32,400 bases of DNA from Patescibacteria group bacterium (lineage in GTDB: Bacteria; Patescibacteriota; Microgenomatia; UBA12405): contig JAHISL010000025.1 of assembly GCA_018818185.1 (NCBI GenBank), positions 1 through 32,400 of the forward strand, read 5' to 3'. Numbering within the stretch: the first letter of the stretch is position 1; each line of letters begins with the position of its first letter. A program made the position numbers and the translations under genes. Below are positions 2,677 through 31,775 of the stretch, piece after piece. Below the pieces are notes generated by a model. The model was not told the origin of the DNA. It saw only the letters and a list, made by a program, of their open reading frames with translations, and ran no database searches.

Positions 2677-3039
2677 TTATATTCTTACTTCCTCTGGAAC
2701 ACTCTCTTGATTTGGATCTCCATGTCGAACCATCATTTCAGTTCCACGCGGATCACCTTCAAGTTTTAAAACCATACTTTTACCGTCTTCAACAGAATAT
2801 CTCTTTGAAGAAAAATCTCTGCCCAAAAAAGTTATCTCTACCTCATCATTCAAACATGAGTGAGAAAGTGTTATTTGTGTCGAAACACCTCTAACTTGCG
2901 GTAATTTCACAACACAGGGCTTCATGCTCTCACCAAGTACCTCTCTTTTGAATTCCACCCGATCTGGTATCGTTCCCGATAATTTGCTTCTTAAAGAAAC
3001 TTTCCCATTTTCCGTTACCCTAATTATTGCCTCTGTCAT
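2677..3039 (-). CDS. Hypothetical protein
   Basis: 120-aa ORF with minus-strand codon bias; TATAAT upstream. Confidence 0.6.
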   Translation of the reverse strand: MTEAIIRVTENGKVSLRSKLSGTIPDRVEFKREVLGESMKPCVVKLPQVRGVSTQITLSHSCLNDEVEITFLGRDFSSKRYSVEDGKSMVLKLEGDPRGTEMMVRHGDPNQESVPEEVRI

Positions 3040-3070
3040 ATATCATACATTATAGCACATATTATCCATT

Positions 3071-15213: not shown

Positions 15214-15513
15214 ATGAATAATCAATCACCAGCGCAAAATAAATTTATATCGCACTTGTTAAAACGCGATCCTAAACTTGGCGAAAAAGATATTCCACCT
15301 CTAGTAAATAGTTTCAAGCGATTTGTAAAAGTGGTTCAGAAAATCTATACCGAACCCCAAGCCCAAATAATAATCAAAAATAAAAAAAGGATTATTACGA
15401 CAGATATTAAAGAGTTTAAGAAGGTTTTTGACAAAGATAATCCCAAACAAGATTTACTTGATACATTTAGAAAATTTCATAAATCTGTAACCAAAGATAA
15501 ATATGGAAGATAA
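15214..15513 (+). CDS. Small basic hypothetical protein overlapping the recombinase start
   Basis: 99 aa, Lys-rich; 11-nt overlap with 15503. Confidence 0.65.
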   Translation: MNNQSPAQNKFISHLLKRDPKLGEKDIPPLVNSFKRFVKVVQKIYTEPQAQIIIKNKKRIITTDIKEFKKVFDKDNPKQDLLDTFRKFHKSVTKDKYGR

Positions 15514-17029
15514 TGAACCAAAATATAATCGTGTTGTAGCTTATATCCGAAAATCGTCGGAAGATAATAAAGAAGGTGAGGCTAAAAAGCAGTTAAATTC
15601 TCTTGAATATCAAAATGATTTTGTTAAAGAAGCAATAAAGAAATATAAACTTGAACTGGCAGGGCCAATTTTTGAAGACACTAAAACCGGATACGAGGCA
15701 TTCGTGCGCGACGACTTTGCTAAAATGCTCGACTACTTAAAAGACCATAAAGACGAGATCGACGGCATTGTGTGTACTGAAATTAGCCGTCTGGCACGAA
15801 ACTTTGCCGACGGTGGAATGATTCTGTGGTATTTACAAAACGGAACAATTAAAAGAATTTATACTCCCACAAAAGTATTTACTGATTCTTCCGGAGATCA
15901 GTTAATGGTCGCTATTGAATTTGCTATGTCAAAGAAATCAAGCGACGATACGGGATACAGAACGATAGAGGGTATGAAATCAAAAGCAAGGGTAATGAAA
16001 CACCCTGCAAGACCTGCAATACTAGGTTACTTTACCGAAGGAAAAATTGGGCAAAAAAAATGGATTATTGATCCCAAAAAAGGGCCATTAGTTAGACAAG
16101 TCTTTGAACAATTCGCAACAGGAAAATACACTTTTGATCAAATAGCAGATTATGCTTTTAATATCGGACTTAAATCAATTAACAAGAAAACTATTATTGG
16201 AAAAATTTCTAAAAACACTTGGAGAAATAGATTGAGTGACGTTCAATACACAGGTATTTTTGAAAGCGACGGAGAAAGAATTGTAGGTGAATATAAACAT
16301 TTAATAGACACTCCACTTTTTTATCGTGTACAAGAAATTATTACCGACCACGAACACCCAAAAACTACCCACCTAGATTACGCATATTCGGGAATGTTTA
16401 AGTGTGGCCTATGTGGTGGAATGCTTTCAGGAACACACAAGAAAGGAATTACTTATTACCGGTGTGGTAAACGGAAAACCCCTTGTAAAGATATTGCTCG
16501 AATTACTTATATCCCCGAAAAACAACTTGAAGACAGTCTAATGACCGCTTTTGAAAACATAGAAATAGATCAAGATACTTGGAAAGCAGCACGAGAATAT
16601 GTCGCTGAAATAAATCAACCTCAAAAACTCGATATTAAGAAACAAATTCGAATGATAGGAGAAAAGATTTCGGCAGAGCAAAATACCCAAATAAATGTAG
16701 GTAGACGATTTTCAGCGAACGAATATACAAAAATAGATTATGACCGACTTATGGAAGATAGCCGTCGTAAAGAAGCCTCGTATCGAAACACGATTATTAA
16801 ATGTGAGAATATCGTAAACGAACTCGACGAACTTATGTATCAATTCCTCGACAACATTAAATATGTCACTAAAAAGTTGAGACTAGCATTACCAGAGAAC
16901 AAAAGAGAAATGGTTGATATTTTTTGTGAGAACTTGGAGTGGAAAGACGGAAAAGCCCTATGGGACTGGAAGAAACCGTATTTTATAATCGCAAATCGAC
17001 CAAAAAATTCAACAGTGCTCCCCCTCTAA
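15503..17029 (+). CDS. Large serine recombinase (integrase)
   Basis: AYIRKSS catalytic motif, EISRLARN, recombinase domain (ILGY), Zn ribbon CGLCGG...YYRC...C, coiled coil; stop codon lies inside the tRNA antisense. Confidence 0.93.
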   Translation: MEDNEPKYNRVVAYIRKSSEDNKEGEAKKQLNSLEYQNDFVKEAIKKYKLELAGPIFEDTKTGYEAFVRDDFAKMLDYLKDHKDEIDGIVCTEISRLARNFADGGMILWYLQNGTIKRIYTPTKVFTDSSGDQLMVAIEFAMSKKSSDDTGYRTIEGMKSKARVMKHPARPAILGYFTEGKIGQKKWIIDPKKGPLVRQVFEQFATGKYTFDQIADYAFNIGLKSINKKTIIGKISKNTWRNRLSDVQYTGIFESDGERIVGEYKHLIDTPLFYRVQEIITDHEHPKTTHLDYAYSGMFKCGLCGGMLSGTHKKGITYYRCGKRKTPCKDIARITYIPEKQLEDSLMTAFENIEIDQDTWKAAREYVAEINQPQKLDIKKQIRMIGEKISAEQNTQINVGRRFSANEYTKIDYDRLMEDSRRKEASYRNTIIKCENIVNELDELMYQFLDNIKYVTKKLRLALPENKREMVDIFCENLEWKDGKALWDWKKPYFIIANRPKNSTVLPL

Positions 17030-17089
17030 GATTCGAACTTAGGACCAATCGCTTAACAGGCGAGCGCTCTACCACTGAGCTAAGGGGGA
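17018..17089 (-). tRNA. tRNA-Asn(GTT), CCA not encoded
   Basis: TCCCCCT TA GCTC AGTGGTA GAGC G CTCGC CTGTTAA GCGAT TGGTC CTAAG TTCGAAT CTTAG AGGGGGA G; TGcTATAAT upstream near 17133-17141. Confidence 0.95.
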
Positions 17090-17183
17090 ATGTGGTCAAA
17101 AAACCATTTCAGATTTTCAAAAGTACAAAGGGATTATAGCATTAAAATCACCTCTAAAATATCCTTAACAAAAACTACCTATA

Positions 17184-17432
17184 TCACGAAAACCGTCTCT
17201 TAATGGGGACAATTTTTGCTAATTCAACATGCCAATCACCATCAAGAAACATCGGCTCTGACATCTTGGGACATACAGACACTTCCGCTGTACTCATAGA
17301 TGATAATATTGGCTGACCAAAGTCAAATCGAGTTTTCGGATGTCTAGTATTTAAGACTCTATTGTGAAAATCAATGTCACAATTTCCATAGGGCCTACCG
17401 CATGTATTACAAACATTTTCACCCTTACCCAT
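17184..17432 (-). CDS. Small Cys-containing hypothetical protein
   Basis: CNTC...C...C; last gene of a tightly packed minus-strand run. Confidence 0.6.
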   Translation of the reverse strand: MGKGENVCNTCGRPYGNCDIDFHNRVLNTRHPKTRFDFGQPILSSMSTAEVSVCPKMSEPMFLDGDWHVELAKIVPIKRRFS

Positions 17433-17436
17433 ATTG

Positions 17437-17973
17437 TTATTTTTTCAATAATCTATAATAAAATTTTTTCTTTCCTTTTGCCTTTGCTTCTTTTTTCCTT
17501 CCTCTATTTGTAGATTCCACAAAAGGAAAGCCCTTTTTCCCCACGTTTCCGTCAATTGCAATACAATACGGTGCAGTGAACCTATCATCAGGAACCCCGG
17601 ATCCAGGCCCTTGCACCATCAAAATCCTAAGTCCTTTCTGTGGTATTTCAATGCCTAACACTCTATCAACGCCATTTACCGTGTTACGCAAGGTAATGTC
17701 CACCCTTGCTCCAATTCGGTGAAAATGTTTAACTATTCGTTCTTCCATTAAATTAAAAGTTATACCACTATAATCACATCTCCCACACTTCGGAATCTCT
17801 TCTCCAATATCCGGACACACCAACCCACTCTGCGCTTTTCTAACAGGACATTCCCCCGCCCATACCTCATCTATGGTCCCATGTCTTGAACTCATATTAT
17901 TCAAATGCCCCACCACTTCATCCGCCGTCGATTTTGGTATTGTCACATATCCTTCACGATATCCATAGTTCAT
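17437..17973 (-). CDS. Hypothetical protein with Cys cluster and basic tail
   Basis: CPV...CPD...CGRC; probable start MNYGY at 17973. Confidence 0.65.
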   Translation of the reverse strand: MNYGYREGYVTIPKSTADEVVGHLNNMSSRHGTIDEVWAGECPVRKAQSGLVCPDIGEEIPKCGRCDYSGITFNLMEERIVKHFHRIGARVDITLRNTVNGVDRVLGIEIPQKGLRILMVQGPGSGVPDDRFTAPYCIAIDGNVGKKGFPFVESTNRGRKKEAKAKGKKKFYYRLLKK

Positions 17974-17977
17974 ATAT

Positions 17978-19183
17978 TTATCTTTTTTCAATAAACTTAC
18001 CTTCAACTATTTTTTCGGGAGAGTTTCCAATTTGATCCGGAGATAAAGGCTTACTCGTAATCGAATTAGGTATATCCCCTACAATTCGAGCAAACGCTGC
18101 CTTGGTAGAAGCAAATTCTCTTGCTGAACTTTCGCCCAATATTTTTCTTTGAGACTCAGAAGCCAAAGTCATGATCCCACCCAAAAATTTCGAGGCAGCC
18201 GTATGTGCATTCAACTCCAGGGAAAATGCTGATAACAAGGCCACCTGAGCCGAAGAATATGCCTCAGCCATCAAGGGTTGATTCCCCCACCCAGCCATCA
18301 AAACATTACCCGCAACAGTAATAACCCCAGGCAAGGTCTGTCTTATTCGATAACTTTCCGAAACACTATTAACCATCCTGTCGACCTTCTGTAATTCTTC
18401 AAGGGACATCAAATCTCTCGGGTCAGTTGTATTTGAAAACTTTTTCAATCTTTCTGCCAACTCTTCCAATGCTTTGTTCACACCCGGAACACCTTCTTTA
18501 GTCACTCTTTGTGCTTCTTGAAGTTTACCTTTCAACTCCTCCATTTTTAAAATAACCAACTGGTTATTAGAAGCATTTTTTTCAAACATTTCTCTTGCCT
18601 TAATAGCATTATCTCTCAACTGTGGCATTATTCTTGCCGCCGCCAACCCGTCATTTATTGGTTCACGAATTACTTCCATTCCTGAAATAAACAAAGCCAT
18701 TGTCTTACTTTTTTCTCTAGTTTCTTTATTAAATCTTGCCCTTAATCCCGAAACATCAAGTCCGTTAATCGCCTCCCATAACCCAACGGCCCCTCTTGTC
18801 AAATTACTCAAAAACTGATCATTCATCCATTCTTCCGGCCTATCAACACTCCCCATCTTACCATCACTGGGAAAAAGAGCACTTCTAAATATATTCATCC
18901 CTTGAACCGCTTGTATTTGTGAAAAGGTCGCTAATTCTGCCGCCTGGGCAATTGCCTTAACCGGAATACTCCCTCCCACGCCGCTTTCTGTTGGAATGAT
19001 TCGATTATCACTAAGCCCAACCCCTTTTCCTCTCCTAATTGAATCTTTTAATGGTTTATTTGCACCTATTGTTGACTGAACAAGTTGATATATTTCTGGT
19101 TGTGCAATCTCAATACCCCTATACACTTCATTTTGAATTTGATTTTCCCCTTTTCCACCACTTTCAATTTTGTTTCTTCCCAT
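17978..19183 (-). CDS. Helical/coiled-coil hypothetical protein
   Basis: 401-aa ORF, heptad-rich middle section. Confidence 0.75.
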   Translation of the reverse strand: MGRNKIESGGKGENQIQNEVYRGIEIAQPEIYQLVQSTIGANKPLKDSIRRGKGVGLSDNRIIPTESGVGGSIPVKAIAQAAELATFSQIQAVQGMNIFRSALFPSDGKMGSVDRPEEWMNDQFLSNLTRGAVGLWEAINGLDVSGLRARFNKETREKSKTMALFISGMEVIREPINDGLAAARIMPQLRDNAIKAREMFEKNASNNQLVILKMEELKGKLQEAQRVTKEGVPGVNKALEELAERLKKFSNTTDPRDLMSLEELQKVDRMVNSVSESYRIRQTLPGVITVAGNVLMAGWGNQPLMAEAYSSAQVALLSAFSLELNAHTAASKFLGGIMTLASESQRKILGESSAREFASTKAAFARIVGDIPNSITSKPLSPDQIGNSPEKIVEGKFIEKR

Positions 19184-19188
19184 ATTTT

Positions 19189-20277
19189 TTAATTAAAATT
19201 ATAATTGTTAATTAATTTTTCTAATTCCTCTTGCTCTTTTGCCATAGAAGCAAAACCCTTTTTCCAATTTCTACCTTCTGTCAAAGCACCCAATTGTCTT
19301 TCAACTTTCCTTCCCGCCGTCGCAATTCCTCCAACATGAAACAAATCAACACAATGCGCCAAAAATATTAGTGATCTACCGGGAATAGCATTCTCAGTTA
19401 TCCCTTTCATAATGGCTAGTCTTCCAACCAACATCTGCGATCGTAGGGCCACTGACTTCAAAGCCGATCTACTTCTATTGTTTCTAACTATCTGCTCAGC
19501 CAACCATTTTTCGGGAGAACCATTTTTTCCCTCTTCCAACATAACCTTTTTTGCTTGATCTCGGGATAAAACCGAACTTATCCCCGACAACAACTCTGCT
19601 TCCACCATCGCCTCAACTGAAGCTACAGCCAATTGGTTAATTGCTTCAAAACCTGGCAAATTTACCTGCCACAACACTGGATCAAAAAACAAATCATCCA
19701 ACACTCTGGCAAAACCTTTTTTTTCAGGTCTATATTGCTGAATAGACTCACCAGCTTCACTTTCCCAAAAAACTTGTCTAATTGGAGCCGTATTTATTTC
19801 CACCGCTCTTACGGGACCAAATTCAACATAATCTCCTTCCCAATAATTTTGTTGAGGTAATGAAATATTCTTTGTCAACTCCGCAACCGCCTCTCTAACC
19901 TCTGGTGCAACTTCAGCCAAACTCTTATGCGTTTCGTTCTCTAATGTTCCCCAAATTTCATTATGACCACTAAAATCGACCTCTGGCGGAGCATGATTTA
20001 TTGTTGCCATTTTTACCAAAACAGCTGGAAAATTTGAAGGAGCAATTTCCAACAATGCCTTCTCTGGCGGTTTTTCACTTCTAAATATTTGTTCTTTTAT
20101 TTCTGGTGGCAAATACGCTTCTGGATCATACAGCCATCCGATATCTGCCTTAGTTTCAACAACAACTGGCTCAGGAACAGTAAATAATGACAAACCTCCC
20201 TCTTTAACCTCTGGCAAAGCCACATTATCCGGCATCTGAAACACACCTCCCACATTTCCTTCTTTTGTGTTTGTCAT
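19189..20277 (-). CDS. Helical hypothetical protein
   Basis: 362-aa ORF, 5 nt from the next gene. Confidence 0.75.
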   Translation of the reverse strand: MTNTKEGNVGGVFQMPDNVALPEVKEGGLSLFTVPEPVVVETKADIGWLYDPEAYLPPEIKEQIFRSEKPPEKALLEIAPSNFPAVLVKMATINHAPPEVDFSGHNEIWGTLENETHKSLAEVAPEVREAVAELTKNISLPQQNYWEGDYVEFGPVRAVEINTAPIRQVFWESEAGESIQQYRPEKKGFARVLDDLFFDPVLWQVNLPGFEAINQLAVASVEAMVEAELLSGISSVLSRDQAKKVMLEEGKNGSPEKWLAEQIVRNNRSRSALKSVALRSQMLVGRLAIMKGITENAIPGRSLIFLAHCVDLFHVGGIATAGRKVERQLGALTEGRNWKKGFASMAKEQEELEKLINNYNFN

Positions 20278-20936
20278 ATTTTATTTAAAACTTTAATTTT
20301 TATTTTATAAATGCAAGTCAGAGAAGATCGGGGTGTGGGGTTTGGGGGGTGTTTTTTTGTTTTTTTTGGCCTTCAGCCCCTGGGAGGGGGTTTTACCCCC
20401 CTCCAACCTCCCATCCGGCCACCCACTCCAGAGCGGCCGCCGCCCAATCTAAGGCGGTGGCAAAAACCTTCAACACCCAGGCCAGGTATGGCCCGAGATT
20501 GAAGATAAATGACGGCGCCGCCGTAAAGACAAAACCCCAGGGGGTTTCATCGATCAACGACGGGTTGTCGACAGAAAAGGACCAAAAAAGCAGTCCTCCA
20601 ATCCCGAAAACAAATCCACTTACCCCCTCAATTATTTCCCTGAGAGGGTCCTTTCCGGACTCCTCACGGAGTAAAACAATCACCAAACTGATCGCCAACG
20701 TGCCGATCAATCCAATAATTGTAAACCAAACCGGCCATCCCGTAAGGGCGCCGATAACAACCAACAGGGAAATTAATCCCTGTAAGATGTTCAAGAAAAC
20801 CACCATGGTTTTCCTCCTTTCTTTTACACGCAACCCGAATTGGTTGACATGAATCAATCTTGGTTATTTCAAAACTGATTCATGCCAACCTTTTCTTCTC
20901 TGACTTGTTAAAGTGCTCTTTGGCTTTCGCCAAAGA
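20278..20936 (-). other. Structured RNA scaffold, copy A
   Basis: GAAA hairpin 20917-20936; boxA-like GCACTTTAACA; perfect 14-bp inverted repeat 20894-20907/20314-20327; 20-bp hairpin 20842-20890; G/C hairpin 20383-20404; A/C tract. Confidence 0.65.
20393..20806 (-). CDS. Small multi-TM membrane protein (GC-richer than its neighbours)
   Basis: AAGGAGG 6 nt before the ATG at 20806; about 4 hydrophobic segments; stop codon in the loop of the G/C hairpin. Confidence 0.7.
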   Translation of the reverse strand: MVVFLNILQGLISLLVVIGALTGWPVWFTIIGLIGTLAISLVIVLLREESGKDPLREIIEGVSGFVFGIGGLLFWSFSVDNPSLIDETPWGFVFTAAPSFIFNLGPYLAWVLKVFATALDWAAAALEWVAGWEVGGG

Positions 20937-20967
20937 CCAAAAAAAGGCCTCAACTTGACCCGAAGCT

Positions 20968-21033
20968 TTATCGGGTTTTATTAAAGGCCTCAAATTGTTT
21001 CATACATGGGCTTAATGCCTCTTTCTGAAACAT
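20968..21033 (-). CDS. Putative leaderless leader peptide MFQKEALSPCMKQFEAFNKTR
   Basis: ATG 5 nt after the -10; stop codon falls in a hairpin loop upstream of a U7 tract. Confidence 0.35.
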   Translation of the reverse strand: MFQKEALSPCMKQFEAFNKTR

Positions 21034-21038
21034 AGAGA

Positions 21039-21067
21039 AATATACATCACAAATGTGTATAAGTCAA
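21039..21067 (-). promoter_or_regulatory. Sigma70-type promoter
   Basis: TTGACT-17-TATATT. Confidence 0.7.
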
Positions 21068-21111
21068 GCTTTTTTGTCCTGTTTTAATATCTTTATAAGA
21101 TTTTCTTATAT

Positions 21112-22395
21112 CTATTGTCCCAAGGCTGCGTTTATCGGACCAAGATAAGTATTCCTCACGTGTTGTCTCATCACCAATGGCCAAAAAGCCCCTGCCAAAT
21201 ATAATTGTCCTTTTGCCATCTCCAACTCAGGACCGGCAACACCCATTTTTTTCAATTGCTTAATCTGTCTTTCAATTTGTTTTCCAACCTCCTCCGTCAC
21301 TTTATTTACTGCCATAGCTCCAATTTTTTCAATCTCAGTCAATCTTTCCTTCAAAATTTCTCGTACCGACATATTTTTATCCTGACTAACCGGAATTCTA
21401 TCATCTAAAGATAATCCTTCATTTATCAACAACAAGACACTATCCTCTACTTTTACCTTAGCCACCCTTTCTGTTTCTTTTGTCAGCTCATCCCTCGTTA
21501 TTGTTTCAGTGCTTACTCTTTTTTCAGAGTAGCGCGTCTTTTTCCCATGTCTAACAGCTACAAGTTCATCCTTACTCTCTGACCTTGTATTGTATTGTGT
21601 TCGCCCCACCACCGATAAACTTTCGCCTCCAGAAACTAATCTAGAAAATTTTACTCCGTTACTTAAAGCAGTTAACCCCTCAAGACAAGCATTTAACTGT
21701 TTTTTTATTCCCTCAGCCTGGTCGCGTGAAATCCTTCCATTTTTATCAAGCACCGCACCCAATGGTGGATCCGGATACATTAATATTTCCGGGTGAAGCC
21801 TTTTGTATTCTCTAAATTTTTCAGCATCTGTTTGCACCCTAGGCTTTGGCACATCCGACATAGATACCTTCACTCCCACAACAGTCGATGTGCAGCTCTC
21901 ATACACATTCTTGGCCATTGCCACCAAAAACGACGAATTCCCTACAGCCCTCACATCACCTCCAACTGGTTTCAAAGCTACTTCCGCAAAGATCAATTTC
22001 CCAGGAATTGGTTCAGTGTGAAGATACTGCACCATCTCATAAACCCTTCCACCAACTCTAAAATGTGACAAACCTGCACGCGCTAACTCTGGACAAAGTT
22101 TTTCCTCTCTTGCTCCATTTTCTATCCCTAAAAATGCCTGACTAAACATTTTCGTGCTTTCGTCAACATACCTTTCTTTCTTGCCTGCCAAATCCATTCC
22201 CCCTTCTACCCATCTCTCCACAGTCTTGTCAAAATCTCCTTTGTACAAATCTTTTGCTCCAATCTTTACCGGCAAAACATTACCATTTCCTGACTCTTTA
22301 AAAATAGGGTTATTAGCCAAAAAAACAGCCAATATACCCGCCATAGCCTCAGGTCTTTCTACCTTCTTCCTCTGAACCGCAACTTCTCTATTCAT
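21112..22395 (-). CDS. Hypothetical protein (paralogue family)
   Basis: Long ORF; probable start MNREV at 22395; TTGACA-17-TATAAA upstream; C-terminal WPLVMRQHVRNTYLGP. Confidence 0.75.
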   Translation of the reverse strand: MNREVAVQRKKVERPEAMAGILAVFLANNPIFKESGNGNVLPVKIGAKDLYKGDFDKTVERWVEGGMDLAGKKERYVDESTKMFSQAFLGIENGAREEKLCPELARAGLSHFRVGGRVYEMVQYLHTEPIPGKLIFAEVALKPVGGDVRAVGNSSFLVAMAKNVYESCTSTVVGVKVSMSDVPKPRVQTDAEKFREYKRLHPEILMYPDPPLGAVLDKNGRISRDQAEGIKKQLNACLEGLTALSNGVKFSRLVSGGESLSVVGRTQYNTRSESKDELVAVRHGKKTRYSEKRVSTETITRDELTKETERVAKVKVEDSVLLLINEGLSLDDRIPVSQDKNMSVREILKERLTEIEKIGAMAVNKVTEEVGKQIERQIKQLKKMGVAGPELEMAKGQLYLAGAFWPLVMRQHVRNTYLGPINAALGQ

Positions 22396-22492
22396 AACAC
22401 ACAACAAATATATATAAGTGACTGTTTATACATCAGCCTTACTTGCTTGTCAATACAATACATATTTTATATAGGGTAAATATATATACCTT

Positions 22493-23719
22493 TTACGACA
22501 AAAAATGTCGCATTGGATTTAGGTAATATTCTTCAACATATTTCAAATACATCGCCGGCCAAATACTCATCAGATTTTTTATTGTCTTTTCGTAAATATC
22601 CATTTCCTCCCGATTAAATCTCCTCGATTTCCTCATGCTTTCTATCAACAAAGTTCCCACCTTTTTTGAACCATTATCAATACTCACCAAATTTCTAGAA
22701 ATTGTAGTTCCCATTTCATATGTTATGTGCTGAAGTATCTCCCCAACCGTTTCCTCATTACCATTGTACAAAACCACCTCATGACTTCCTATCTTACCCC
22801 CCATAATCCAATACATCAAATCTATCATTACTCCGTCATCTCCATACTTTCTAAAGTCGTTAATCTCTATCCTGGTCATTCCCTCAGAGTTTGTTTGCCC
22901 CCTAAACAAATCAGTTGTTTCACCAAAAACTCTTTTCCGACTTTTTTGTTTGGGTCGACGAATAACCATTTCAGCCACAAATCTCCCTTTATCCTCCTCC
23001 AATTTATTCACCATCTTTTCAGATAACTTAATGTCTTTCGCCGGAATTGTCATTGTCATGGCAATTTCTTTCATCCCCTTGCTTACCTTCTCGACTAACC
23101 CAATCGCTTCTTCATTCAAACTAATCTCACCTCCTTTATCAAAAATTACAGGCAAAATAGCTCCTGGAAATGAAATTTGCCTTCCTGAAAAATCTTCGTA
23201 AGCAGGATACACTCCTTTCCACGATTGTCTTTGTCTTGTTTTGGAATCATCCTTTGCCAATTGTGGGCCCTTTTTTTGTTCTCTAATATACCCTCTCGGC
23301 ACTACCCGAACACCTGCCAAACACACCTTCCCCCCACTGGGAGATTCTATTGGTAGCTCGATTCCCGTAGATATCATTTCCACCCCAAAGACTTTATCTA
23401 CAAACCCTAATCTTTTTCCTTCTTTGCTTTTTCCAACACCCTCCCACAAAGCACCAAACACATTCTTTCCATTTTCCAACCAATTCTTTGTTTCCACTGG
23501 CAAATCCCTAATTTTTCTCCCAATACCAAAACGAGCCCTTTCCACATACTCACCCAATGGTGATAATTTCTTGAAATCACTTCTTAAAAATGGATTTATT
23601 TTTGATAAATGCACCAAATCTTCCCCAGGAATCTTTGCAGTTATCTCTCCAAGTTTCTTCTGACTAGAAATTTCCCAACCACTTTCAGGAGCTGATTCAT
23701 GTCCACGTCTATAAGCCAT
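22493..23719 (-). CDS. Hypothetical protein (paralogue family)
   Basis: 408 aa; TTGACA-17-TATAAA upstream; C-terminal WPAMYLKYVEEYYLNP. Confidence 0.75.
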   Translation of the reverse strand: MAYRRGHESAPESGWEISSQKKLGEITAKIPGEDLVHLSKINPFLRSDFKKLSPLGEYVERARFGIGRKIRDLPVETKNWLENGKNVFGALWEGVGKSKEGKRLGFVDKVFGVEMISTGIELPIESPSGGKVCLAGVRVVPRGYIREQKKGPQLAKDDSKTRQRQSWKGVYPAYEDFSGRQISFPGAILPVIFDKGGEISLNEEAIGLVEKVSKGMKEIAMTMTIPAKDIKLSEKMVNKLEEDKGRFVAEMVIRRPKQKSRKRVFGETTDLFRGQTNSEGMTRIEINDFRKYGDDGVMIDLMYWIMGGKIGSHEVVLYNGNEETVGEILQHITYEMGTTISRNLVSIDNGSKKVGTLLIESMRKSRRFNREEMDIYEKTIKNLMSIWPAMYLKYVEEYYLNPMRHFLS

Positions 23720-23797
23720 TAATTATCAAAATTCTAATGCTTCTTTATACCTCAAAGCACATCATTTGTCAACTATATTTTTTTATTATAAGCTAGT

Positions 23798-23998
23798 TTA
23801 TTTCCTATCCCCTGTCGGTTGTGCCTTAGTTATTCCTGCCACATTCCAACCCCCTGTAATCTCAGTTTGTTCATGGTGACAATCCTCCCCCGTATCTCTT
23901 CCTGTATGCCTTGCCTTCAATTTCCCTCCCTCTGTCAGATGAGCAGTTTCATCTACTTCACAATCAAACAATCTTGGCTGTTCTTCTTGTTTTCTCAT
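23798..23998 (-). CDS. Small hypothetical protein
   Basis: TATAAT-6 nt-ATG. Confidence 0.55.
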   Translation of the reverse strand: MRKQEEQPRLFDCEVDETAHLTEGGKLKARHTGRDTGEDCHHEQTEITGGWNVAGITKAQPTGDRK

Positions 23999-24012
23999 AC
24001 TTATATTATATC

Positions 24013-24216
24013 TTACCTACTTCTTCTCCTTACTTCTTTATCAATAACTGCCTGTTTAACTCTCTCTGTTGCCACAACCACATCAACAGCTTCAGAAATT
24101 CTACCTAAAAATCCATTTTTTCTTGGCTTCATTACCTCATCCTGATTACTCAAGACTTCGCTCCAGCCAGTTCCATTTCTTCCCGCCCTTTTTCCTTCAA
24201 TTTTAAAAATTGTCAT
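24013..24216 (-). CDS. Small basic hypothetical protein
   Basis: Start reassigned to the ATG at 24216 (MTIFKIEG); the upstream in-frame part is the non-coding scaffold. Confidence 0.55.
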   Translation of the reverse strand: MTIFKIEGKRAGRNGTGWSEVLSNQDEVMKPRKNGFLGRISEAVDVVVATERVKQAVIDKEVRRRSR

Positions 24217-24353
24217 TAATTTTCTTAAACTTATAATCAAAATTTTAATGATGCCTGCGAAATATTTGTTTTTTGTGTGTGTTTGTTTTTTTTGTTTTTG
24301 CCCTTGGCCGTTTGGTGGAGGGGTATAAATACCCCCCCACCTCACCGATATAC

Positions 24354-24542
24354 TTAGTCAGGATCGCCGGCGCCGGCAATCCTCGACAATCCTAATTCTC
24401 TCTCTTGAACTTCAAGAGAGATATCCGATTCTTTGGTTTTTGCTAGCATCTTTTCTCTGCAGCTTTGAAAAAATTTACACCCAGAACAATTATTTAACGG
24501 ACATTGATCTGGTTTTCCAGGAGTTTTATTTTTTGTCATCAT
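24354..24542 (-). CDS. Small Cys-rich protein (C-x4-C-x2-C-x5-C)
   Basis: CPLNNCSGCKFFQSC; ATGA overlap with the upstream ORF. Confidence 0.55.
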   Translation of the reverse strand: MMTKNKTPGKPDQCPLNNCSGCKFFQSCREKMLAKTKESDISLEVQERELGLSRIAGAGDPD

Positions 24543-24727
24543 CGTACCTTCCCAGCATCTAGTTTTCGATTGTGCAATTCTTTCAATTCGGCATCTGATA
24601 ACGACTTTCCAGCCCGTGCCAGCTTCTTTTGTTTCTGTTCCAATACTCTGATTCTCCTAAGATTACCATCCTTTGAACACATGCTATTATCCTTTTCTTG
24701 TGGGCAAGTATTATTTAATCCACTCAC
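24539..24727 (-). CDS. Small basic hypothetical protein
   Basis: GTG start directly after the long hairpin (alternative ATG at 24682). Confidence 0.5.
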   Translation of the reverse strand: MSGLNNTCPQEKDNSMCSKDGNLRRIRVLEQKQKKLARAGKSLSDAELKELHNRKLDAGKVR

Positions 24728-24943
24728 ATTGAGTAGAACCCAATCAGTTCACAATCTTTCAATTGTGCTCTCATCGGGCCCACTCAATCACAAATATTTC
24801 GCAGGTTTTTAAAGTACTCTTACTTCCCGCCAATGTGATTGCTATGTATCTCACCGCAGTCTTGTAAGATACTTCTCAGTCTATCACAATGTCTTATAAT
24901 ATCAAGGAGTCAAATACACATTTATTGCACACATTTTTATGCT

Positions 24944-25273
24944 TTACTTGTGATAAACCCGACCAAGTCTCTTTAGTAACAAACTCTCTTCCCCAACAAC
25001 TACTTCCTCTTTTTCTTGTCTCCGTCTCAACATTCCCGCTACATCTACCCTTAGCAACCATTCTTGATTTTCCAAGCTTCCTTCTTCAATCGGTAATCTC
25101 CGTCTTCTTATGGCATGATCATGACACAACACGGCTACTGGCATTGCTTCCATCTCCGGATAGGCATATCTGACAAATCGATTTCTATTTTCTTTTGGAA
25201 CAATTCCATTTAAACACAAATAAACCCTCCCCTTCTCTTCAACTCCAATTTCGTTACAATCCTGACAATTCAA
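24944..25273 (-). CDS. Hypothetical protein with CxxC...C...CxxH
   Basis: 109-aa ORF; start uncertain. Confidence 0.55.
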   Translation of the reverse strand: MNCQDCNEIGVEEKGRVYLCLNGIVPKENRNRFVRYAYPEMEAMPVAVLCHDHAIRRRRLPIEEGSLENQEWLLRVDVAGMLRRRQEKEEVVVGEESLLLKRLGRVYHK

Positions 25274-25337
25274 CTGAGACAGTCGTTTATTAATTCTTGA
25301 TTCTATGTTGCTACTCTATCACGCACCCGTCCGCTTT

Positions 25338-25604
25338 TTATCTATATACCTCTTTTCGAAAAGCCACCTCTACAACCTTAATTCTCCTTGCCTTGTTATC
25401 CACCTCAAAAATCAATCTCAACTTACCCATTCTCAATCTGAAATAATCCCCCAGTTCACCACTTAGTTTTTTAACATTGTTATTGTTCAGATAGTTGTTC
25501 AACAAACTAGCTTTAAGAAAAATTCTTTCGGCATCTTTTTTTGATAGTTTTTTAAAATCCTTTTTTGCCTCATCAGAAAAACCTATTTCAAAGTTTAACT
25601 TCAT
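25338..25604 (-). CDS. Type II toxin, RelE/ParE family
   Basis: KKLSGELGDYFRLRMGKLRLIFEVD...RKEVYR. Confidence 0.9.
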   Translation of the reverse strand: MKLNFEIGFSDEAKKDFKKLSKKDAERIFLKASLLNNYLNNNNVKKLSGELGDYFRLRMGKLRLIFEVDNKARRIKVVEVAFRKEVYR

Positions 25605-25866
25605 ATTCTCTAGCCAAATCTTCCAAACTGGTAAAACCTTTACCTCTGCCTTCTTTTTCCAACTTATAAACCAACTGTTGATCCTCCCAATCCTCCAGCT
25701 TTTCTAAGATAGTTTTAAATTCCTTCATACTCAACACCACCGCCTGCGGTTCAGATCTCTGAAAGATATACTTCATACCTTTTTTCTGAACATCTTTTAA
25801 AAAGCTGATAGCGTCAACCCGCATATCAGTTACTGTACTTATATTATCTTTGCTTGGTATAAACAT
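25588..25866 (-). CDS. Type II antitoxin, Phd/YefM family
   Basis: STVTDMR...YIFQRSEPQAVVLSMKEF...LEDWED; upstream of and overlapping the toxin. Confidence 0.85.
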   Translation of the reverse strand: MFIPSKDNISTVTDMRVDAISFLKDVQKKGMKYIFQRSEPQAVVLSMKEFKTILEKLEDWEDQQLVYKLEKEGRGKGFTSLEDLAREYEVKL

Positions 25867-25901
25867 AACATTAATATAACATTTTCGTAACGTTTTTACA
25901 A
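25866..25901 (-). promoter_or_regulatory. Toxin-antitoxin promoter with 11-bp-phased direct repeats
   Basis: TTGTAA-17-TATATT-6-ATG; TAAC(A/G)TT at 25866, 25877 and 25888. Confidence 0.6.
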
Positions 25902-25911
25902 TAGCCCTTCT

Positions 25912-25936
25912 GTAGGGGCGCTGCTAGCCAGCGCCC
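25912..25936 (+). repeat. GTAG-type REP-like hairpin (single copy here)
   Basis: GTAG followed by GGGCGCTG-ctagc-CAGCGCCC. Confidence 0.45.
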
Positions 25937-25959
25937 TAAAATCACTATATAATGTTTCT

Positions 25960-28215
25960 ATGTCTGATATTGCTTCGCTTTGGAAAATTTTAGAAATCCG
26001 TCTACCTCAAGAAAACGAGTTCACTCCCGAGTCCATGTCTTCTCTTCTAAGCAACTTTGTCCAAATGAGCCACAAATCATTTTTCAACCGTATCTTTGGC
26101 AAAAAAACAACCATCACCTCCTTAGAAATCGTTCTTCTCGATGGACAAATTCATTTCTATGTCACCATTCCCGCCGCCAATTTCGAGTTTTTTCGTGCTC
26201 AAATCCTCGCCCAATACCCCACCGCCATCACCAAAGAATCAAAAGACTATTTAGATAGATTAGTGGATAAAAGCGGAGTAAACAATTTTTCGGAGCACAG
26301 CGAACGCGAAGGCGTAGCCAAGCCCGTAGGTAGCGAGCACCGCAAAAATTCGTTTACAAACGAATTATCCATGAGCCAATTAACTCTTGCCCGTCCCTAT
26401 ACCTACCCCCTCAAAACCAACCGTGATTTTCGTGACACCGACCCCCTGGCCTCAGTTCTTTCTCCCCTGGCTCGCTCCGCCCAATCCCAAGATTTTTTTG
26501 TTTACCAAATTCTCCTTTCCGCCCCTCCAAAAAATTGGCAATCGTCAATTATCTCCGTCATTCAAAACGGCATTGTTGTCGACAAGGAAAAAGGTTTTCG
26601 CCAAGCCCATCCCGACAAACAAGTTTTCGAAACCAAAATTCAATACCCTGGTCTATTAACCCAGATAAATCTTCTTAGTAACAACCCTTCGCTATTAAAC
26701 TCCATTTCTTCCTCTTTTGGTATCTACACCTCCCCCAGAGGCAACTTTATCAAGCCCTCTTCCCCCTCCTTTCTATACAAAAGAAACCTCAAAAAATCAA
26801 TTTTTCATCGATCTTTTTTACCCGGTCTTTCGACACAAATTTTGAATGTTGAGGAACTTTCTGCTCTTTGGCATTTTCCCACCTCGCTCACCAAGCTCCC
26901 CAACATCGCCTGGGGCAAAAATCTTTTCTCTGACCCTCCCGAAAACCTTCCTGCCGCTACTAATCTCGACGACGCCGCCAAGGAGAAAATCACCTTTTTT
27001 GCCAAAACCGAATTTCATAATCAAGATACCATCTTTGGCATCAAAGAAGGTGAGGATCGCCGCCGCCACACCTACATTATCGGAAAATCTGGTACCGGAA
27101 AAACCACCCTCATTGCCAACATGGCCATCGACGATATTCGTAAAGGTCGAGGTGTCGCCGTTATCGATCCACATGGCGATTTGTGCAACACTATTCTCGA
27201 CTACATTCCCGCCTCTCGTATCAATGATTGTTGTTATTTCAATCCTGCAGATCCAGATTATGTTTATCCTCTCAATGTCCTTGAAGCCCAAAACGAGTCT
27301 CAAAAAGAGCTTGTTGCCTCTGGCGTCATCTCAATTTTTAAGAAACTTTACGGCAATGTCTCCTGGGGACCCCGTCTAGAACACATTCTTCGCAATGCAG
27401 TTTTAACCCTCGTCAATACACCTGGCTCAGATCTAACTCATGTTGTTGAAATATTAACTCACAAAGAATATCGTAATCAGGTTGTCGCCGGCCTCAAAAA
27501 CCAAACCCTAAAAAATTTCTGGATTAATGAATATGACCGGATGGATGCCAAATTCCAAAATGAAGCTATTTCTCCCATTCTCAACAAAGTTGGTCAGTTT
27601 ATTTCCTCCACCAATATTAGAAACACCATTGCCCACCCCAAATCAAAGATTCGTATCGAAGACATTATGAACGAGAAGAAAATCCTTATCGCCGATCTTT
27701 CCACCGGAAAATTAGGTGAAGATAACTCTGCTCTTCTCGGCGCCATGTTAATTACTCAAATCCAGCTTTCTGCTATGAACCGCGTTTTCCAAGGCGAGTC
27801 AGAACGTTCTGATTTTTATCTTTATGTCGACGAATTCCAAAACTTTGCCACCGAAGCCTTCATCAAAATCCTCTCTGAAGCTCGGAAATTTAAACTAAAC
27901 CTTATTGTCGCCAATCAATATATGGCCCAGCTTGATCGTCCTATCCAAGATGCTCTATTTGGAAACGTTGGCTCCCTCCTCTCCTTTGTCGTCGGCAATC
28001 AAGATGCTTATCTTCTCAGCAAAGAATTTGGCCCAAAATTCCCCCCCGAAGACCTAGTAAAAATTGGAAAATACCAGATTATTTGCAAACTTAGTATCGA
28101 TTCCGAAACCCAAAATCCTTTTTACGCCACCACTCTCTCACCTCTTTCCTGTAAAAACCAGGGTCGCGACAAACTAATTCGCACTTCCCAAGAACGTTGG
28201 GGTAAAGTAAAATAG
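25960..28215 (+). CDS. VirB4/TraG-TrwB (HerA/DUF87)-like P-loop ATPase
   Basis: HTYIIGKSGTGKT (Walker A), VIDPHGD, LYVDEFQN (Walker B), SEARKF, ANQY..QL. Confidence 0.9.
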   Translation: MSDIASLWKILEIRLPQENEFTPESMSSLLSNFVQMSHKSFFNRIFGKKTTITSLEIVLLDGQIHFYVTIPAANFEFFRAQILAQYPTAITKESKDYLDRLVDKSGVNNFSEHSEREGVAKPVGSEHRKNSFTNELSMSQLTLARPYTYPLKTNRDFRDTDPLASVLSPLARSAQSQDFFVYQILLSAPPKNWQSSIISVIQNGIVVDKEKGFRQAHPDKQVFETKIQYPGLLTQINLLSNNPSLLNSISSSFGIYTSPRGNFIKPSSPSFLYKRNLKKSIFHRSFLPGLSTQILNVEELSALWHFPTSLTKLPNIAWGKNLFSDPPENLPAATNLDDAAKEKITFFAKTEFHNQDTIFGIKEGEDRRRHTYIIGKSGTGKTTLIANMAIDDIRKGRGVAVIDPHGDLCNTILDYIPASRINDCCYFNPADPDYVYPLNVLEAQNESQKELVASGVISIFKKLYGNVSWGPRLEHILRNAVLTLVNTPGSDLTHVVEILTHKEYRNQVVAGLKNQTLKNFWINEYDRMDAKFQNEAISPILNKVGQFISSTNIRNTIAHPKSKIRIEDIMNEKKILIADLSTGKLGEDNSALLGAMLITQIQLSAMNRVFQGESERSDFYLYVDEFQNFATEAFIKILSEARKFKLNLIVANQYMAQLDRPIQDALFGNVGSLLSFVVGNQDAYLLSKEFGPKFPPEDLVKIGKYQIICKLSIDSETQNPFYATTLSPLSCKNQGRDKLIRTSQERWGKVK
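26264..26371. repeat. 108-bp palindromic element inserted in frame within the ATPase gene
   Basis: Nested inverted repeats tggataa/ttatcca, gtaaac/gtttac, aattttt/aaaaatt, cgg/ccg; G-rich within a C-rich gene. Confidence 0.6.
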
Positions 28216-28218
28216 CTA

Positions 28219-28713
28219 ATGCCAGACACAGAACCTGTTAATATCGTCAACGAACTTAGACAAGAAGTAAAAACGGAAGAAACACTTAGAAAAAGGCATC
28301 AATTTAACGCCGTTGCCAATGCCTCCGCCGTCGTTGAACAACATGTAAATAAAATAAATGTCGCCTCCAAAGTTGAATGTGCCTTTTGGGGACTATATTC
28401 ATACCTAGAGTCAATTTACCCCAACCAAACCCTAGAGCAAATCGAAGACAAAGCAAGTCAGATACTCACATTCGATAGATCAGAAGACCCAGAACTTTTT
28501 TTTCAACAACAATCGATAATTCGACAACATCCCAATTCATCCATCATCGGTATCACCGCCCACATTCTCACACAACAAAAAAGAACCAATGAAATTAACC
28601 CCAAAATCCTAAATCCTTCACCAGAAATGCTTAAAAACTTCAAAAAAAGTCTCGGCGAACCAAACCCTGAACTAGTCGGCAAAGCCCTCGACCTCGCAAC
28701 TCACGATAATTAA
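28219..28713 (+). CDS. Hypothetical protein
   Basis: 164 aa, starts 3 nt after the ATPase stop. Confidence 0.65.
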   Translation: MPDTEPVNIVNELRQEVKTEETLRKRHQFNAVANASAVVEQHVNKINVASKVECAFWGLYSYLESIYPNQTLEQIEDKASQILTFDRSEDPELFFQQQSIIRQHPNSSIIGITAHILTQQKRTNEINPKILNPSPEMLKNFKKSLGEPNPELVGKALDLATHDN

Positions 28714-28818
28714 CCTCAAACTCCTTATTCTAACCTTTTTGTGCTCAAGATCACAGCTATTGAATTAGATATCTCACTCTTGCTACACTCATCCATTACT
28801 TATTTCTTATATATAAGT

Positions 28819-29016
28819 ATGGCCTTATCGATAGTAGAAGCATTACAAAGAATTTATCAAACAGGTGGATACATCGTCGATAGTAAAGAAGCATGTCAGG
28901 ACTGCACCTCTCAACCAGCATGTCGTCAAGTTTCAAGAACTGAACACACTAAAATTTCTCCCGGATCCCCAACCTGTCAAAGAGTAACCTCTGCAGAGGC
29001 AGAATCTCGAAAGTAA
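28819..29016 (+). CDS. Small Cys-rich protein
   Basis: CQDC...C...C; likely start at the ATG at 28819. Confidence 0.5.
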   Translation: MALSIVEALQRIYQTGGYIVDSKEACQDCTSQPACRQVSRTEHTKISPGSPTCQRVTSAEAESRK

Positions 29017-29075
29017 TCTTGCCACTCCCTCAATCCATTTCCACCCTCGCTTTGATTTTAAGTTCAATTTGCCCC

Positions 29076-29104
29076 TTGACAGCATTATAAGACAGTCCTA
29101 TAGT
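29076..29104 (+). promoter_or_regulatory. Sigma70-type promoter
   Basis: TTGACA-17-TATAGT. Confidence 0.7.
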
Positions 29105-29136
29105 TATATTAATTAAACATTATTTATTAAAATAAA

Positions 29137-29304
29137 ATGTCAAAAGAAACTATAGGACATAAACCAACCGATACAGCCAATATGCCCGAATTAAGGCGAG
29201 ATATTATAGAAGCTAGATTCATTCCTCGACTTAATCAAGCCGACTCCATGCTCAATCAGGCTACATACGGTAAAGTAGACTTTATTGCTTCTATCTTAGC
29301 TTAA
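29137..29304 (+). CDS. Small protein, 55 aa (not in the ORF track)
   Basis: MSKETIGHKPTDTANMPELRRDIIEARFIPRLNQADSMLNQATYGKVDFIASILA; follows the promoter and an A/T-rich leader. Confidence 0.55.
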   Translation: MSKETIGHKPTDTANMPELRRDIIEARFIPRLNQADSMLNQATYGKVDFIASILA

Positions 29305-29333
29305 ATATTATTCATTAACCCATAACAAAACAT

Positions 29334-29474
29334 ATGTCTAAAGAACAATCATTTTTTTACAAAGAAACACCAGCAGGCCGAAATAATCTTCGTGACGAAT
29401 TTGGTCAAGCCTACACTCCTGACCCTATCACCCCCGTCCAATCTCGCCAATCCCTAATTATTAAAGAAAAATAA
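29334..29474 (+). CDS. Small protein, 46 aa (not in the ORF track)
   Basis: MSKEQSFFYKETPAGRNNLRDEFGQAYTPDPITPVQSRQSLIIKEK. Confidence 0.5.
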   Translation: MSKEQSFFYKETPAGRNNLRDEFGQAYTPDPITPVQSRQSLIIKEK

Positions 29475-29478
29475 ACCT

Positions 29479-29730
29479 ATGCCTCCCAGAACCAGTCAAG
29501 AACAGCTTAGACAAAGAACAGAGAAAAGAAGTAATCGTTTTCCCGCTCAGCCTCAAACTCAAGCCGAAACTCCGGTTGCCAGGCATGAACGCATTGAGGA
29601 AAACCTCCTCAAAATTCCAACTCACATGGCATCTGAACCAAAACCCATCGGAGATGTTACCTTTCTTGATGTTCGCCAAAGAGCTGGTACTTCAAAAGGA
29701 AAACGACCAACACCACCAAAACGTCCTTAA
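29479..29730 (+). CDS. Small disordered hypothetical protein
   Basis: 83 aa, starts 4 nt after the previous stop; abuts the topA stop. Confidence 0.55.
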   Translation: MPPRTSQEQLRQRTEKRSNRFPAQPQTQAETPVARHERIEENLLKIPTHMASEPKPIGDVTFLDVRQRAGTSKGKRPTPPKRP

Positions 29731-31707: not shown

Positions 31708-31775
31708 AAAATACAGTCTACACCCTTTATAATTGCCTATTGTAACATTACCCCTCTGCTTGTCCGTCCAGAGCT

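Follow-up and report, generated by a model that had tools for sequence, protein, structure and literature searches.

Layout of the two cassettes

The minus strand of contig JAHISL010000025.1 from a very small groundwater bacterium of the Patescibacteria group (assembly GCA_018818185.1) carries two loci, A and B, in which a motif resembling the boxA of ribosomal RNA (rRNA, rrn) operons adjoins one arm of a perfect inverted repeat, the other arm lying beyond a short protein-coding cargo. The window analysed is this whole contig (32,400 nucleotides, nt), and the host is represented by a metagenome-assembled genome (MAG) of 762 kb in 112 contigs, which is 90%-complete. All eight layout features that an earlier note on this DNA had listed are found in both loci, at the minus-strand coordinates given below. 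The motif reads AAGAGCACTTTAA in locus A (20908-20920) and AAGAGTACTTTAA in locus B (24809-24821), and the 13-mer AAGAG(C/T)ACTTTAA has exact matches only at these two places, both in the window and in the 762-kb genome.

Cassette A begins with a predicted promoter-like site (TTGACT-17-TATATT, 21039-21067; 10/12 matches in a consensus scan), followed by a 7-bp hairpin with a GAAA loop (20918-20935; fold -9.5 kcal/mol) directly 5' of boxA, the order of boxB and boxA in rrn operons. The boxA of A (GCACTTTAACAA, 20905-20916) shares its last 3 nt with arm 1 (20894-20907), the leader strand of the inverted repeat. Further downstream lie a leader hairpin of 21 bp (20842-20890), a cargo open reading frame (ORF) for a hydrophobic protein of 137 aa with the Shine-Dalgarno (SD) sequence AAGGAGG (20393-20806), a G/C hairpin past the stop codon (20383-20404), a tract of A and C only (20330-20374), arm 2 or trailer strand (20314-20327), and an A/T-rich spacer of 36 nt (20278-20313) that ends at the next ATG (20277).

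Cassette B has the same order: a predicted promoter-like site with a TG element (TTGATA-16-TAGACT, 24878-24905; 9/12 matches in the consensus scan), boxA (GTACTTTAAAAA, 24806-24817), arm 1 (24790-24805), a leader hairpin (24728-24788), the cargo (24354-24682), a G/C hairpin (24314-24341), an A/C-only tract (24265-24307), arm 2 (24254-24269) and an A/T-rich spacer of 37 nt (24217-24253) before the next ATG (24216). Its cargo comprises two small overlapping ORFs of 47 aa (24682-24539) and 62 aa (24542-24354), the second of which contains the pattern C..CKFF..CRE. The promoter-like sites stand ~120 nt (A) and ~60 nt (B) upstream, and such sites are no more numerous in the region than in shuffled sequence. 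In both cassettes boxA lies 100-125 nt upstream of the cargo start; the cargo ORFs have strong SD sequences, while the neighbouring genes have A/T-rich leaders that lack one. A G/C hairpin followed by an A/C tract occurs only at A and B in the genome (two of the seven A/C tracts listed), and the tracts, being C-rich and G-poor, are probably rut-like and would load Rho.

The cargo ORF of A has no match in Pfam, PHROG or NCBIfam and no usable match in the ESM Atlas. Across the eleven minus-strand ORFs between 17184 and 25273, Pfam, PHROGs and NCBIfam give no match except for two far-sub-threshold NCBIfam hits to a 401-aa ORF. An Rfam scan of the window returns a tRNA alone, with no RNA family in the cassettes and no ribozyme in A or B.

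Long-range pairing and selection on RNA

The arms of A and B are unrelated in sequence, as had been noticed earlier, yet each pair is perfect: 14 nt are 100% complementary across 566 nt in A, and 16 nt across 520 nt in B. The numbers of perfect 14-mer and 16-mer complements expected within ~700 nt in 5.6 kb, by our own calculation, are only ~0.015 and ~0.001, so that chance is excluded for both pairs. Whole-cassette folds (761 nt for A, 691 nt for B) contain the long-range helix in the minimum-free-energy (MFE) as well as the centroid structure, with z-scores of -12.4 (A) and -13.5 (B) against 20 shuffles each.

The leader hairpins are markedly more stable on the minus strand (-30.6 vs. -19.8 kcal/mol on the plus strand in A, -32.9 vs. 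-17.9 kcal/mol in B), an advantage of 11-15 kcal/mol, and contain three (A) and four (B) G.U pairs. This asymmetry, together with the compensatory changes described next, bears out the proposal that selection acts on the RNA. Eight B-type cassettes were aligned with MAFFT without any pairing information. In the columns of the long-range helix, 84.2% of the cells pair, a share that falls to 40-50% if the partner is slid by 1-3 columns, and both sides have changed in 8 of the 21 pairs. The covariation score is 0.299 vs. 0.123 ± 0.027 for shuffled alignments (0/500 reach it) and at most 0.15 for the slid controls. One column pair is occupied by U-A in four sequences, U.G in two and C-G in two. 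The arms of the A-type cassettes (A, L253, L255) differ by A-U to G-C, A-U to U-A and C-G to U.G changes, and in a contig of sequencing run X1 a G-to-A change at 20326, in arm 2 of A, replaces a G-C pair of the minus strand by G.U. These changes show that the long-range RNA helix is under selection. The 5' half of boxA (GCACTTT) lies outside the helix and is invariant in the B-type alignment.

Identity of the boxA motif

The MAG contains no assembled 16S gene, and rrn leaders were taken from the 16S loci of relatives. Within the genus, boxA lies ~100-130 nt upstream of 16S and reads GCACTTTAACAA in L011 and L019, identical to locus A at 12/12 positions; the variants are GTTCTTTAACAA in L013-L015 and GTTCTTTAACAT in L018 and L012, the leader of the latter ending at the contig end. 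The closest rrn match of B belongs to L006, a genome of the same order (GCACTTTAAAAAC, as compared with GTACTTTAAAAAC in B). The motif also precedes 23S, after the spacer tRNA (L021, L025, L044, L048). A third cassette of the host genome, on contig C43 (described below), carries GTTCTTTAACAA, the 16S-leader boxA of L013-L015. The published gamma-proteobacterial consensus is GYTCTTTAANA, in which C4 and T6 are critical by mutation (PMC5725501; statements attributed here to this article, to PMC10250234, to PMC13753749 and to the preprint 10.64898/2026.03.17.712431 refer to parts of those texts). A and B agree with it at 10/11 positions, C4 and T6 included, their one mismatch (A for T at position 3) being shared by the rrn boxA of L011 and L019, and the C43 motif agrees at 11/11. 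The boxA reading of the earlier note, and the comparison with the host lineage that it had called for, thus come out in its favour, and the shared motif is, judging by these identities, the lineage's own rRNA boxA.

The likeness extends to the helix. In the rrn operons of L011 and L019 the 16S leader-trailer duplex begins inside boxA, where TTTAACAAAC pairs with GTTTGTTAAA, and the leader strand TTTAACAAAC...TTCACTTTTTAGCC pairs with the 16S trailer. The helix of the genus rrn operons starts inside boxA just as it does in the cassettes, and the proposed analogy to rRNA leaders and trailers holds to that extent. The boxB-like GAAA hairpin is a less general feature: it is present in A and confined to A, although some hairpin 5' of boxA recurs elsewhere.

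A reading without Nus factors takes the 12-mer as the outer part of the helix or as an RNA or DNA site of another protein, the helix alone acting, for example, in the control of stability by pairing of the 5' untranslated region (UTR) with the 3' UTR. The motif is indeed A/T-rich, occurs by chance in ORFs and in transfer-messenger RNA (tmRNA), and the SuhB family is mostly not found in the genus. Yet the variants GCACTTTAACAA, GTTCTTTAACAA and GCACATTAACAA occupy both canonical rrn boxA positions, before 16S and before 23S, and the gamma-proteobacterial consensus is matched at 10-11 of 11 positions (PMC5725501). The motif is moreover kept across cassettes with unrelated arms, hairpins and cargo, and its 5' half is invariant in the B-type alignment despite lying outside the helix. 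This reading is accordingly judged quite improbable, and it is very probable that the two loci share an RNA-level leader-trailer helix fused to a genuine boxA.

Many further matches to GTACTTTAAAAA proved to be the body of tmRNA (Rfam RF00023, E 1.6e-22) and were set aside, which removed 16 of 90 motif instances. In the early 5' region of the family's tmRNA stands a boxA-like string, G(C/T)ACTTTAAAAA (L043:1475-1923 and 15 other loci), of which 9-11 nt are perfectly complemented ~300-390 nt downstream in many of these loci. This may be a long-range helix of the tmRNA itself, whose formal likeness to the cassettes is possibly a coincidence.

A family-wide class

The boxA pattern was searched in 104 genomes of the family. 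The 40 nt starting from boxA position 5 were examined for a perfect complement of at least 12 nt located 150-1500 or 150-2500 nt downstream. As controls, the sequence was reversed, or complemented but not reversed, or the query window was moved by 60 nt in either direction. In a first set of 30 motif instances (the two of the window and 28 from 30 fetched loci), a complement follows in 7/30, as against 0, 0, 1 and 0 of 30 in the controls; without the window the count is 5/28. A second set gives 11/57, a count that includes one rrn leader and two doubtful matches of the low-complexity or tmRNA type, with controls of 0, 1, 0 and 0 of 57. The variant boxA GCACATTAACAA has a complement in 4/29 cases (control 0/29), and the 17-mer in unrelated genomes in 0/108 among the matches listed. 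Arm 1 starts at boxA offset 7-13 in the matches of this test. The 90 motif instances of the family divide into 16 in tmRNA, 6 rRNA leaders, 6 too near a contig end, 34 intergenic and 28 in ORFs; a complement of at least 12 nt follows 11 of the 34 intergenic instances vs. 2 of the 28 in ORFs.

The reverse approach leads to the same loci in the host genome. A scan of 448 inverted repeats of at least 12 nt finds boxA (with at most two mismatches) beside arm 1 at A, B, C43 and one palindrome, the last being a chance match. The C43 cassette (G000 contig C43, ~2760-3430, plus strand) consists of a promoter, GTTCTTTAACAA, the arm ACAACTCACTCACTT, a hairpin, an SD sequence, an ORF for a 124-aa lipoprotein, a G/C hairpin, arm 2, and a 43-nt A/T spacer before an ATG. 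The description of the scaffold as twice-repeated was thus an undercount, and both the further copies and the covariation in relatives that had been proposed as a check are present.

In total, 22 cassettes are listed, three in the host genome and 19 in 15 other genomes of the family (5 genera), with at least eight unrelated arm sequences among them. The common order is a promoter, often a hairpin, then boxA, arm 1, a long hairpin, an SD sequence, the cargo, a stable hairpin and arm 2; a hairpin of -20 kcal/mol or lower lies within 110 nt before arm 2 in 12/22. The cargo encodes either a small membrane protein or a lipoprotein marked by a signal-peptide cysteine, or else consists of a pair of small ORFs like that of B. 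The A/C tract and the trailing CAT of the earlier description hold for A, B and close homologs, and other cassettes have T-rich or purine-rich trailers, for which reason the tract was rejected as a feature of the class.

A B-type cassette followed in tandem by an A-type cassette, as in the window, recurs on single contigs of G009 and G017, and three B-type cassettes (L026, L029, L046) adjoin a divergent gene for a coupling ATPase, again as in the window. The other scanned cassettes have chromosomal neighbours (SHMT, Ddl, AlaRS, GT2 glycosyltransferases). Around ten loci from other families of the order comprise only rrn leaders and matches that lack a complement. The exact B-type 21-mer occurs in 2 of 401 sampled genomes of the class, both of this family, and in none of the viral contigs searched.

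Conserved scaffold and exchanged cargo

Close homologs of A (L002) and B (L003) were recovered, on two short metagenome contigs, in a search for relatives by protein. The scaffold, i.e., the leader, boxA with arm 1, arm 2 and the spacer, is 95-100% identical to L002 or L003, and the cargo is less conserved: in A the scaffold is 96-100% identical to L002 and the cargo 75% identical at the nt level, and the cargo of B is 61% identical to that of L003. In contigs of runs X3 and X4 the B cargo is replaced by 323 other letters, with the flanks kept. A search of 60 relatives did not find the 362-aa downstream protein, and the 427-aa protein has no relative in genome contigs and a single one in a set of 5.8 billion proteins.

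The gene downstream of A differs in L002 (L002:2209) exactly from its ATG onward, the 36-nt spacer before it being 100% identical, and 20276 is likewise the point of divergence in contigs of runs X1 and X2. The spacer of A seems to be either a recombination boundary or a 5' UTR common to different genes. The G+C content of some cargo is 0.48-0.54 (window 20393-20806; L026, L029, L030, L182, L193) vs. 0.37-0.43 in several other cassettes, and neighbouring bins of the window have 0.38-0.40, below the cargo of A; the G+C-richer cargo hints at an exchange of cargo from other sources.

Cargo exchanged between relatives with the flanks kept, perfect inverted repeats around a segment of 520-566 bp, and the gene of a large serine recombinase at a distance of 3.3 kb from locus A would fit a DNA element, either an invertible segment flipped by a recombinase or a mobile unit, cassette-like or resembling a miniature inverted-repeat transposable element, with the arms as terminal repeats. 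The arms of A, B and the other types are unrelated, however, which misfits a single recombinase, and they covary and accept G.U pairs, though not C.A. The position of arm 1 with respect to boxA is constant, the unit is co-oriented with a promoter and SD-led ORFs, and L002 and L003 are oriented like the window. The check for DNA inversion proposed earlier gave no strand-changing joint in the contigs of four runs (in which rare variants are dropped), only two joints at which sequence is skipped or replaced. No target-site duplications were seen, and a conjugation-type gene stands only at the B-type loci L026, L029 and L046 among the loci scanned, the others having chromosomal neighbours. A DNA-level explanation is thus extremely improbable. 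Circularisation of the cargo RNA, another suggestion of the earlier note, left no visible hint; together with a retron, an integron attC site and an intron it was rejected, there being no second ribozyme, intron core or attC-like local palindrome, and no reverse transcriptase was found among the scanned ORFs of the window.

The junction with the next cistron and the host factors

Some relatives carry another candidate for cleavage at the junction. In L181 and L193, a hammerhead-like sequence of type III begins directly after arm 2 and extends with its 3' strand up to the next ATG, where a GT2 glycosyltransferase gene starts. The scores lie under the 48.5 gathering score of RF00008 (L181:544-611, minus strand, 44.5 bits, E 1.6e-6; L193:1454-1502, plus strand, 28.2 bits, E 0.063). 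L182 shows the same arrangement by eye, and the catalytic core CUGAUGA...GAAA is visible in all three. The predicted hammerhead cleavage site is 7 nt past the helix. Hammerhead-like sequences at this position suggest that the separation of the cargo from the next cistron is a recurring need there. For A and B, the candidates for such a cut are RNase III, acting on the helix, and a single-strand nuclease, acting on the A/U spacer.

The host encodes NusB, NusA, RNase III and Rho. On G000 contig C35 (831-1749, plus strand), nusB (831-1070) lies 28 nt upstream of rnc (1099-1749). SuhB stabilises the rrn antitermination complex of Escherichia coli (rrnTAC). The SuhB/inositol-monophosphatase family occurs in only 1/13 high-quality genomes of the genus, while the rrn boxA is conserved, and since SuhB is this rare, any antitermination complex here must differ from the E. 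coli rrnTAC.

A model of the cassettes and its assessment

A and B most plausibly belong to a family-wide class of messenger RNA (mRNA) leader-trailer cassettes that copy the architecture of the host rRNA operons; this reading, which is also the best joint explanation when architecture and mechanism are blended, is given a probability of roughly 55%. In E. coli, tethering of boxA has been proposed to promote formation of the leader-trailer helix (PMC10250234), and the assembled rrnTAC is reported to boost the processing that RNase III carries out co-transcriptionally (preprint 10.64898/2026.03.17.712431). The cassettes appear to match this tethering model at each point. Upon transcription, boxA in the nascent RNA would recruit NusB-S10 and other Nus factors to RNA polymerase, and the modified polymerase could then pass the untranslated trailer, with its hairpin and rut-like A/C tract in A and B or its hairpin and U-tract in some relatives. 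With boxA tethered at the RNA exit, as proposed from the E. coli rrn work, arm 1 would be held beside the emerging arm 2, and closure of the helix would turn the cargo RNA into a panhandle. An endonucleolytic cut, inside the helix or just 3' of it, would free a cargo mRNA with paired and protected ends, and the downstream cistron would then begin near an A/U-rich leader without SD. In A and B the cut would fall to RNase III, and in three related cassettes perhaps to the hammerhead-like sequence (below the Rfam cut-off). The net effect would be an independent dosage of a small envelope protein and its neighbour.

The full mechanism, cleavage included, is put at somewhat below even odds. A wider formulation is offered more tentatively still: that a family of Shapirobacteria-like bacteria of the candidate phyla radiation (CPR) may mature a set of mRNAs as bacteria mature rRNA, with a boxA-loaded antitermination complex, closure of a helix, and RNase III or a hammerhead 7 nt past the helix excising a panhandle mRNA for a small envelope protein, both at chromosomal loci and at the head of a conjugative-element operon, where foreign genes might also be shielded from Rho.

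Several observations weigh against this model. The B 12-mer GTACTTTAAAAA is not specific, as it is also found within tmRNA (16 loci) and within ORFs, and the predicted fold pairs the 5' half of the B boxA with upstream sequence. No perfect complement of at least 11 nt follows 21 of the 34 intergenic boxA matches within the fetched 1.5-2.5 kb, and discovery in relatives started from boxA, an approach that would miss cassettes lacking it. A hairpin with a U-tract before arm 2 is present in only 4/22 cassettes (by our own script), and a terminator inside the loop was rejected as a general feature on this count. The hairpins before arm 2 of L188, L176 and L046 are missing from the output of a consensus terminator scan; their loops are read as 9 nt, outside its range of 3-8. 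The helices are short, 14 bp (A) and 16 bp (B) perfect and 11-18 bp in relatives, some of which reach 17-18, compared with 16S leader-trailer duplexes of -65 to -77 kcal/mol in six operons of the same genus and with the at least 17 bp needed for 16S function in E. coli (PMC10250234), which makes efficient cleavage by RNase III uncertain. Where a hammerhead-like sequence or, in L023, an intrinsic terminator sets the 3' end, the helix need not be the cleavage site. As to host factors, the MAG, which is 90%-complete, yielded neither NusG nor a member of the SuhB family; across the genus, 21/23 genomes have NusG and only 4/23 a SuhB-family protein.

An alternative is a helix that stays uncut and acts as a clamp. 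Such a helix would either protect the ends of the cargo mRNA as a panhandle stabiliser or strip boxA from NusB-S10, with the effect that polymerase would again become able to terminate or that the cargo would escape translational repression by Nus factors, as at suhB and lambda N. In most cassettes the 3' part of boxA is also part of arm 1, so that formation of the helix should compete with binding at boxA. At suhB and lambda N, Nus factors bound to boxA act through an RNA loop to repress translation (PMC5725501). The helices are shorter than typical rrn leader-trailer helices, and a 3' end independent of RNase III is conceivable in L181 and L193, with their hammerhead-like sequences, and in L023, where arm 2 is followed by a hairpin and T-run that form a terminator by eye; at these loci the helix would do no more than bring both ends together. 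On the other hand, A and B show no other feature by which cargo and downstream gene could be separated, the genome encodes RNase III beside nusB, and in E. coli RNase III cuts the rrn structure that the cassettes imitate (PMC10250234). An uncut clamp is considered less likely than the model above.

Relation to known systems

BoxA and leader-trailer helices are textbook parts of ribosome biogenesis. The closest parallel of the cassettes is the rrn leader of E. coli (boxB-boxA-boxC), with its rrnTAC and a 16S leader-trailer helix that RNase III processes, which has the same order of hairpin, boxA, 5' strand of the helix and, past the enclosed RNA, 3' strand (PMC10250234; preprint 10.64898/2026.03.17.712431). 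The boxA of the cassettes is identical to that of the lineage's rrn operons, and their helix begins inside boxA and covaries. Unlike rrn operons, they enclose 0.45-1.3 kb of SD-led protein-coding sequence rather than rRNA, their perfect helices of 11-18 bp contrast with the far more stable rrn duplexes, and their loop contains a hairpin and a rut-like or U-rich tract. The scarcity of SuhB in the genus sets them apart from the E. coli rrnTAC as well.

An rrn-type boxA in the 5' region of a transcript other than rRNA has precedents. Gamma-proteobacteria have boxA on suhB and on the gene of a ParE-like toxin of C. koseri, with 407 predicted sites in all, and an RNA loop between boxA and polymerase has been proposed (PMC5725501); boxA is also described on suhB and CRISPR operons (PMC13753749). 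The mRNA sites in the first of these accounts lie at most 50 nt from the start codon, this distance being a selection criterion, and the portions of it drawn on here mention no trailer complement (PMC5725501). In the cassettes of A and B, by contrast, boxA is 100-125 nt upstream and is fused to a helix that closes 0.45-1.3 kb downstream, and the hosts are Patescibacteria. In lambda nutL, boxA and boxB are found ~200 nt upstream of N, in a structured leader where repression is modulated by RNase III (PMC5725501). The cassettes resemble this system in the succession of boxA, long leader hairpin and SD-led gene, and would also share with it the use of host Nus factors by a mobile element and a role of RNase III. 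They differ in that no N-like protein or boxB-binding partner was identified, the hairpin precedes boxA, and the structure cut by RNase III is local in lambda, whereas the helix of the cassettes spans the gene. A lambdoid nut site was rejected for A for this order, since nut sites need boxA and then boxB. No N-like family was found among the window ORFs (Pfam and PHROGs for 15503-31851, NCBIfam for these and six upstream ORFs), such proteins being small and diverse.

In icaR of Staphylococcus aureus, the 3' UTR reportedly pairs with the SD sequence and blocks translation, the paired 5' and 3' UTRs being cut by RNase III. Both have a long-range leader-trailer helix within a single mRNA, tied to RNase III in icaR and putatively so in the cassettes; in contrast to icaR, the cassette arms lie more than 85 nt upstream of the SD sequence, are fused to boxA and form a recurring class. 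Intercistronic hammerheads (RF00008) are matched by the type III sequences between arm 2 and the next start codon (L181 and L193, and L182 by eye). Rfam finds none in A or B, and that of L181 is below the gathering score.

BoxA on mRNAs and CRISPR operons and leader-trailer helices of rRNA are already known, and what appears to be new is their fusion around a protein-coding cargo. Searches in the main texts of the open full-text literature, a scope that leaves out subscription journals, found no report of a boxA with a gene-spanning helix around protein-coding cargo, and none for CPR bacteria; the main text of PMC11404451 mentions neither Patescibacteria nor boxA. The framing by rRNA-type signals suggests that these mRNAs are handled like rRNA. 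If this is true, the looping and chaperoning of RNA by antitermination complexes would be a general tool for long-range folding rather than a speciality of rRNA, and the cassettes, compact at ~600 nt and easily read out through a protein, would offer a natural test bed for asking if tethering of boxA leads to leader-trailer pairing. They would also show how the transcripts of operons are segmented, and the stoichiometry of proteins is set, by CPR bacteria with minimal genomes and by their conjugative elements, and would provide a portable design for the insulation or excision of cistrons.

Genomic context and the leader of cassette A

The two cassettes belong to a minus-strand array that extends from 25273 down to 17184. 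The large serine recombinase gene (15503-17029, plus strand) overlaps at its end a tRNA gene on the minus strand (17018-17089), and this overlap is likely the integration junction of an element. The window also carries a ParE/Phd pair, a VirD4/TraD-like coupling ATPase (25960-28215, plus strand) and a topoisomerase IA with Topoisom_bac, Toprim and zinc-ribbon domains. Because of these genes, the window looks like an integrative conjugative element.

The leader of A contains, upstream of boxA, a 5-codon mini-ORF with an SD sequence (ATG at 21007, stop codon at 20992-20990, minus strand). A terminator-like structure followed by T7 (20966-20938) overlaps with its 5' arm the stop codon of this mini-ORF, and the whole stretch (window 20938-21007) could possibly form a translation-sensitive attenuator. 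It is 97% identical in L002, and a hairpin followed by T8 occupies the equivalent place in L027.

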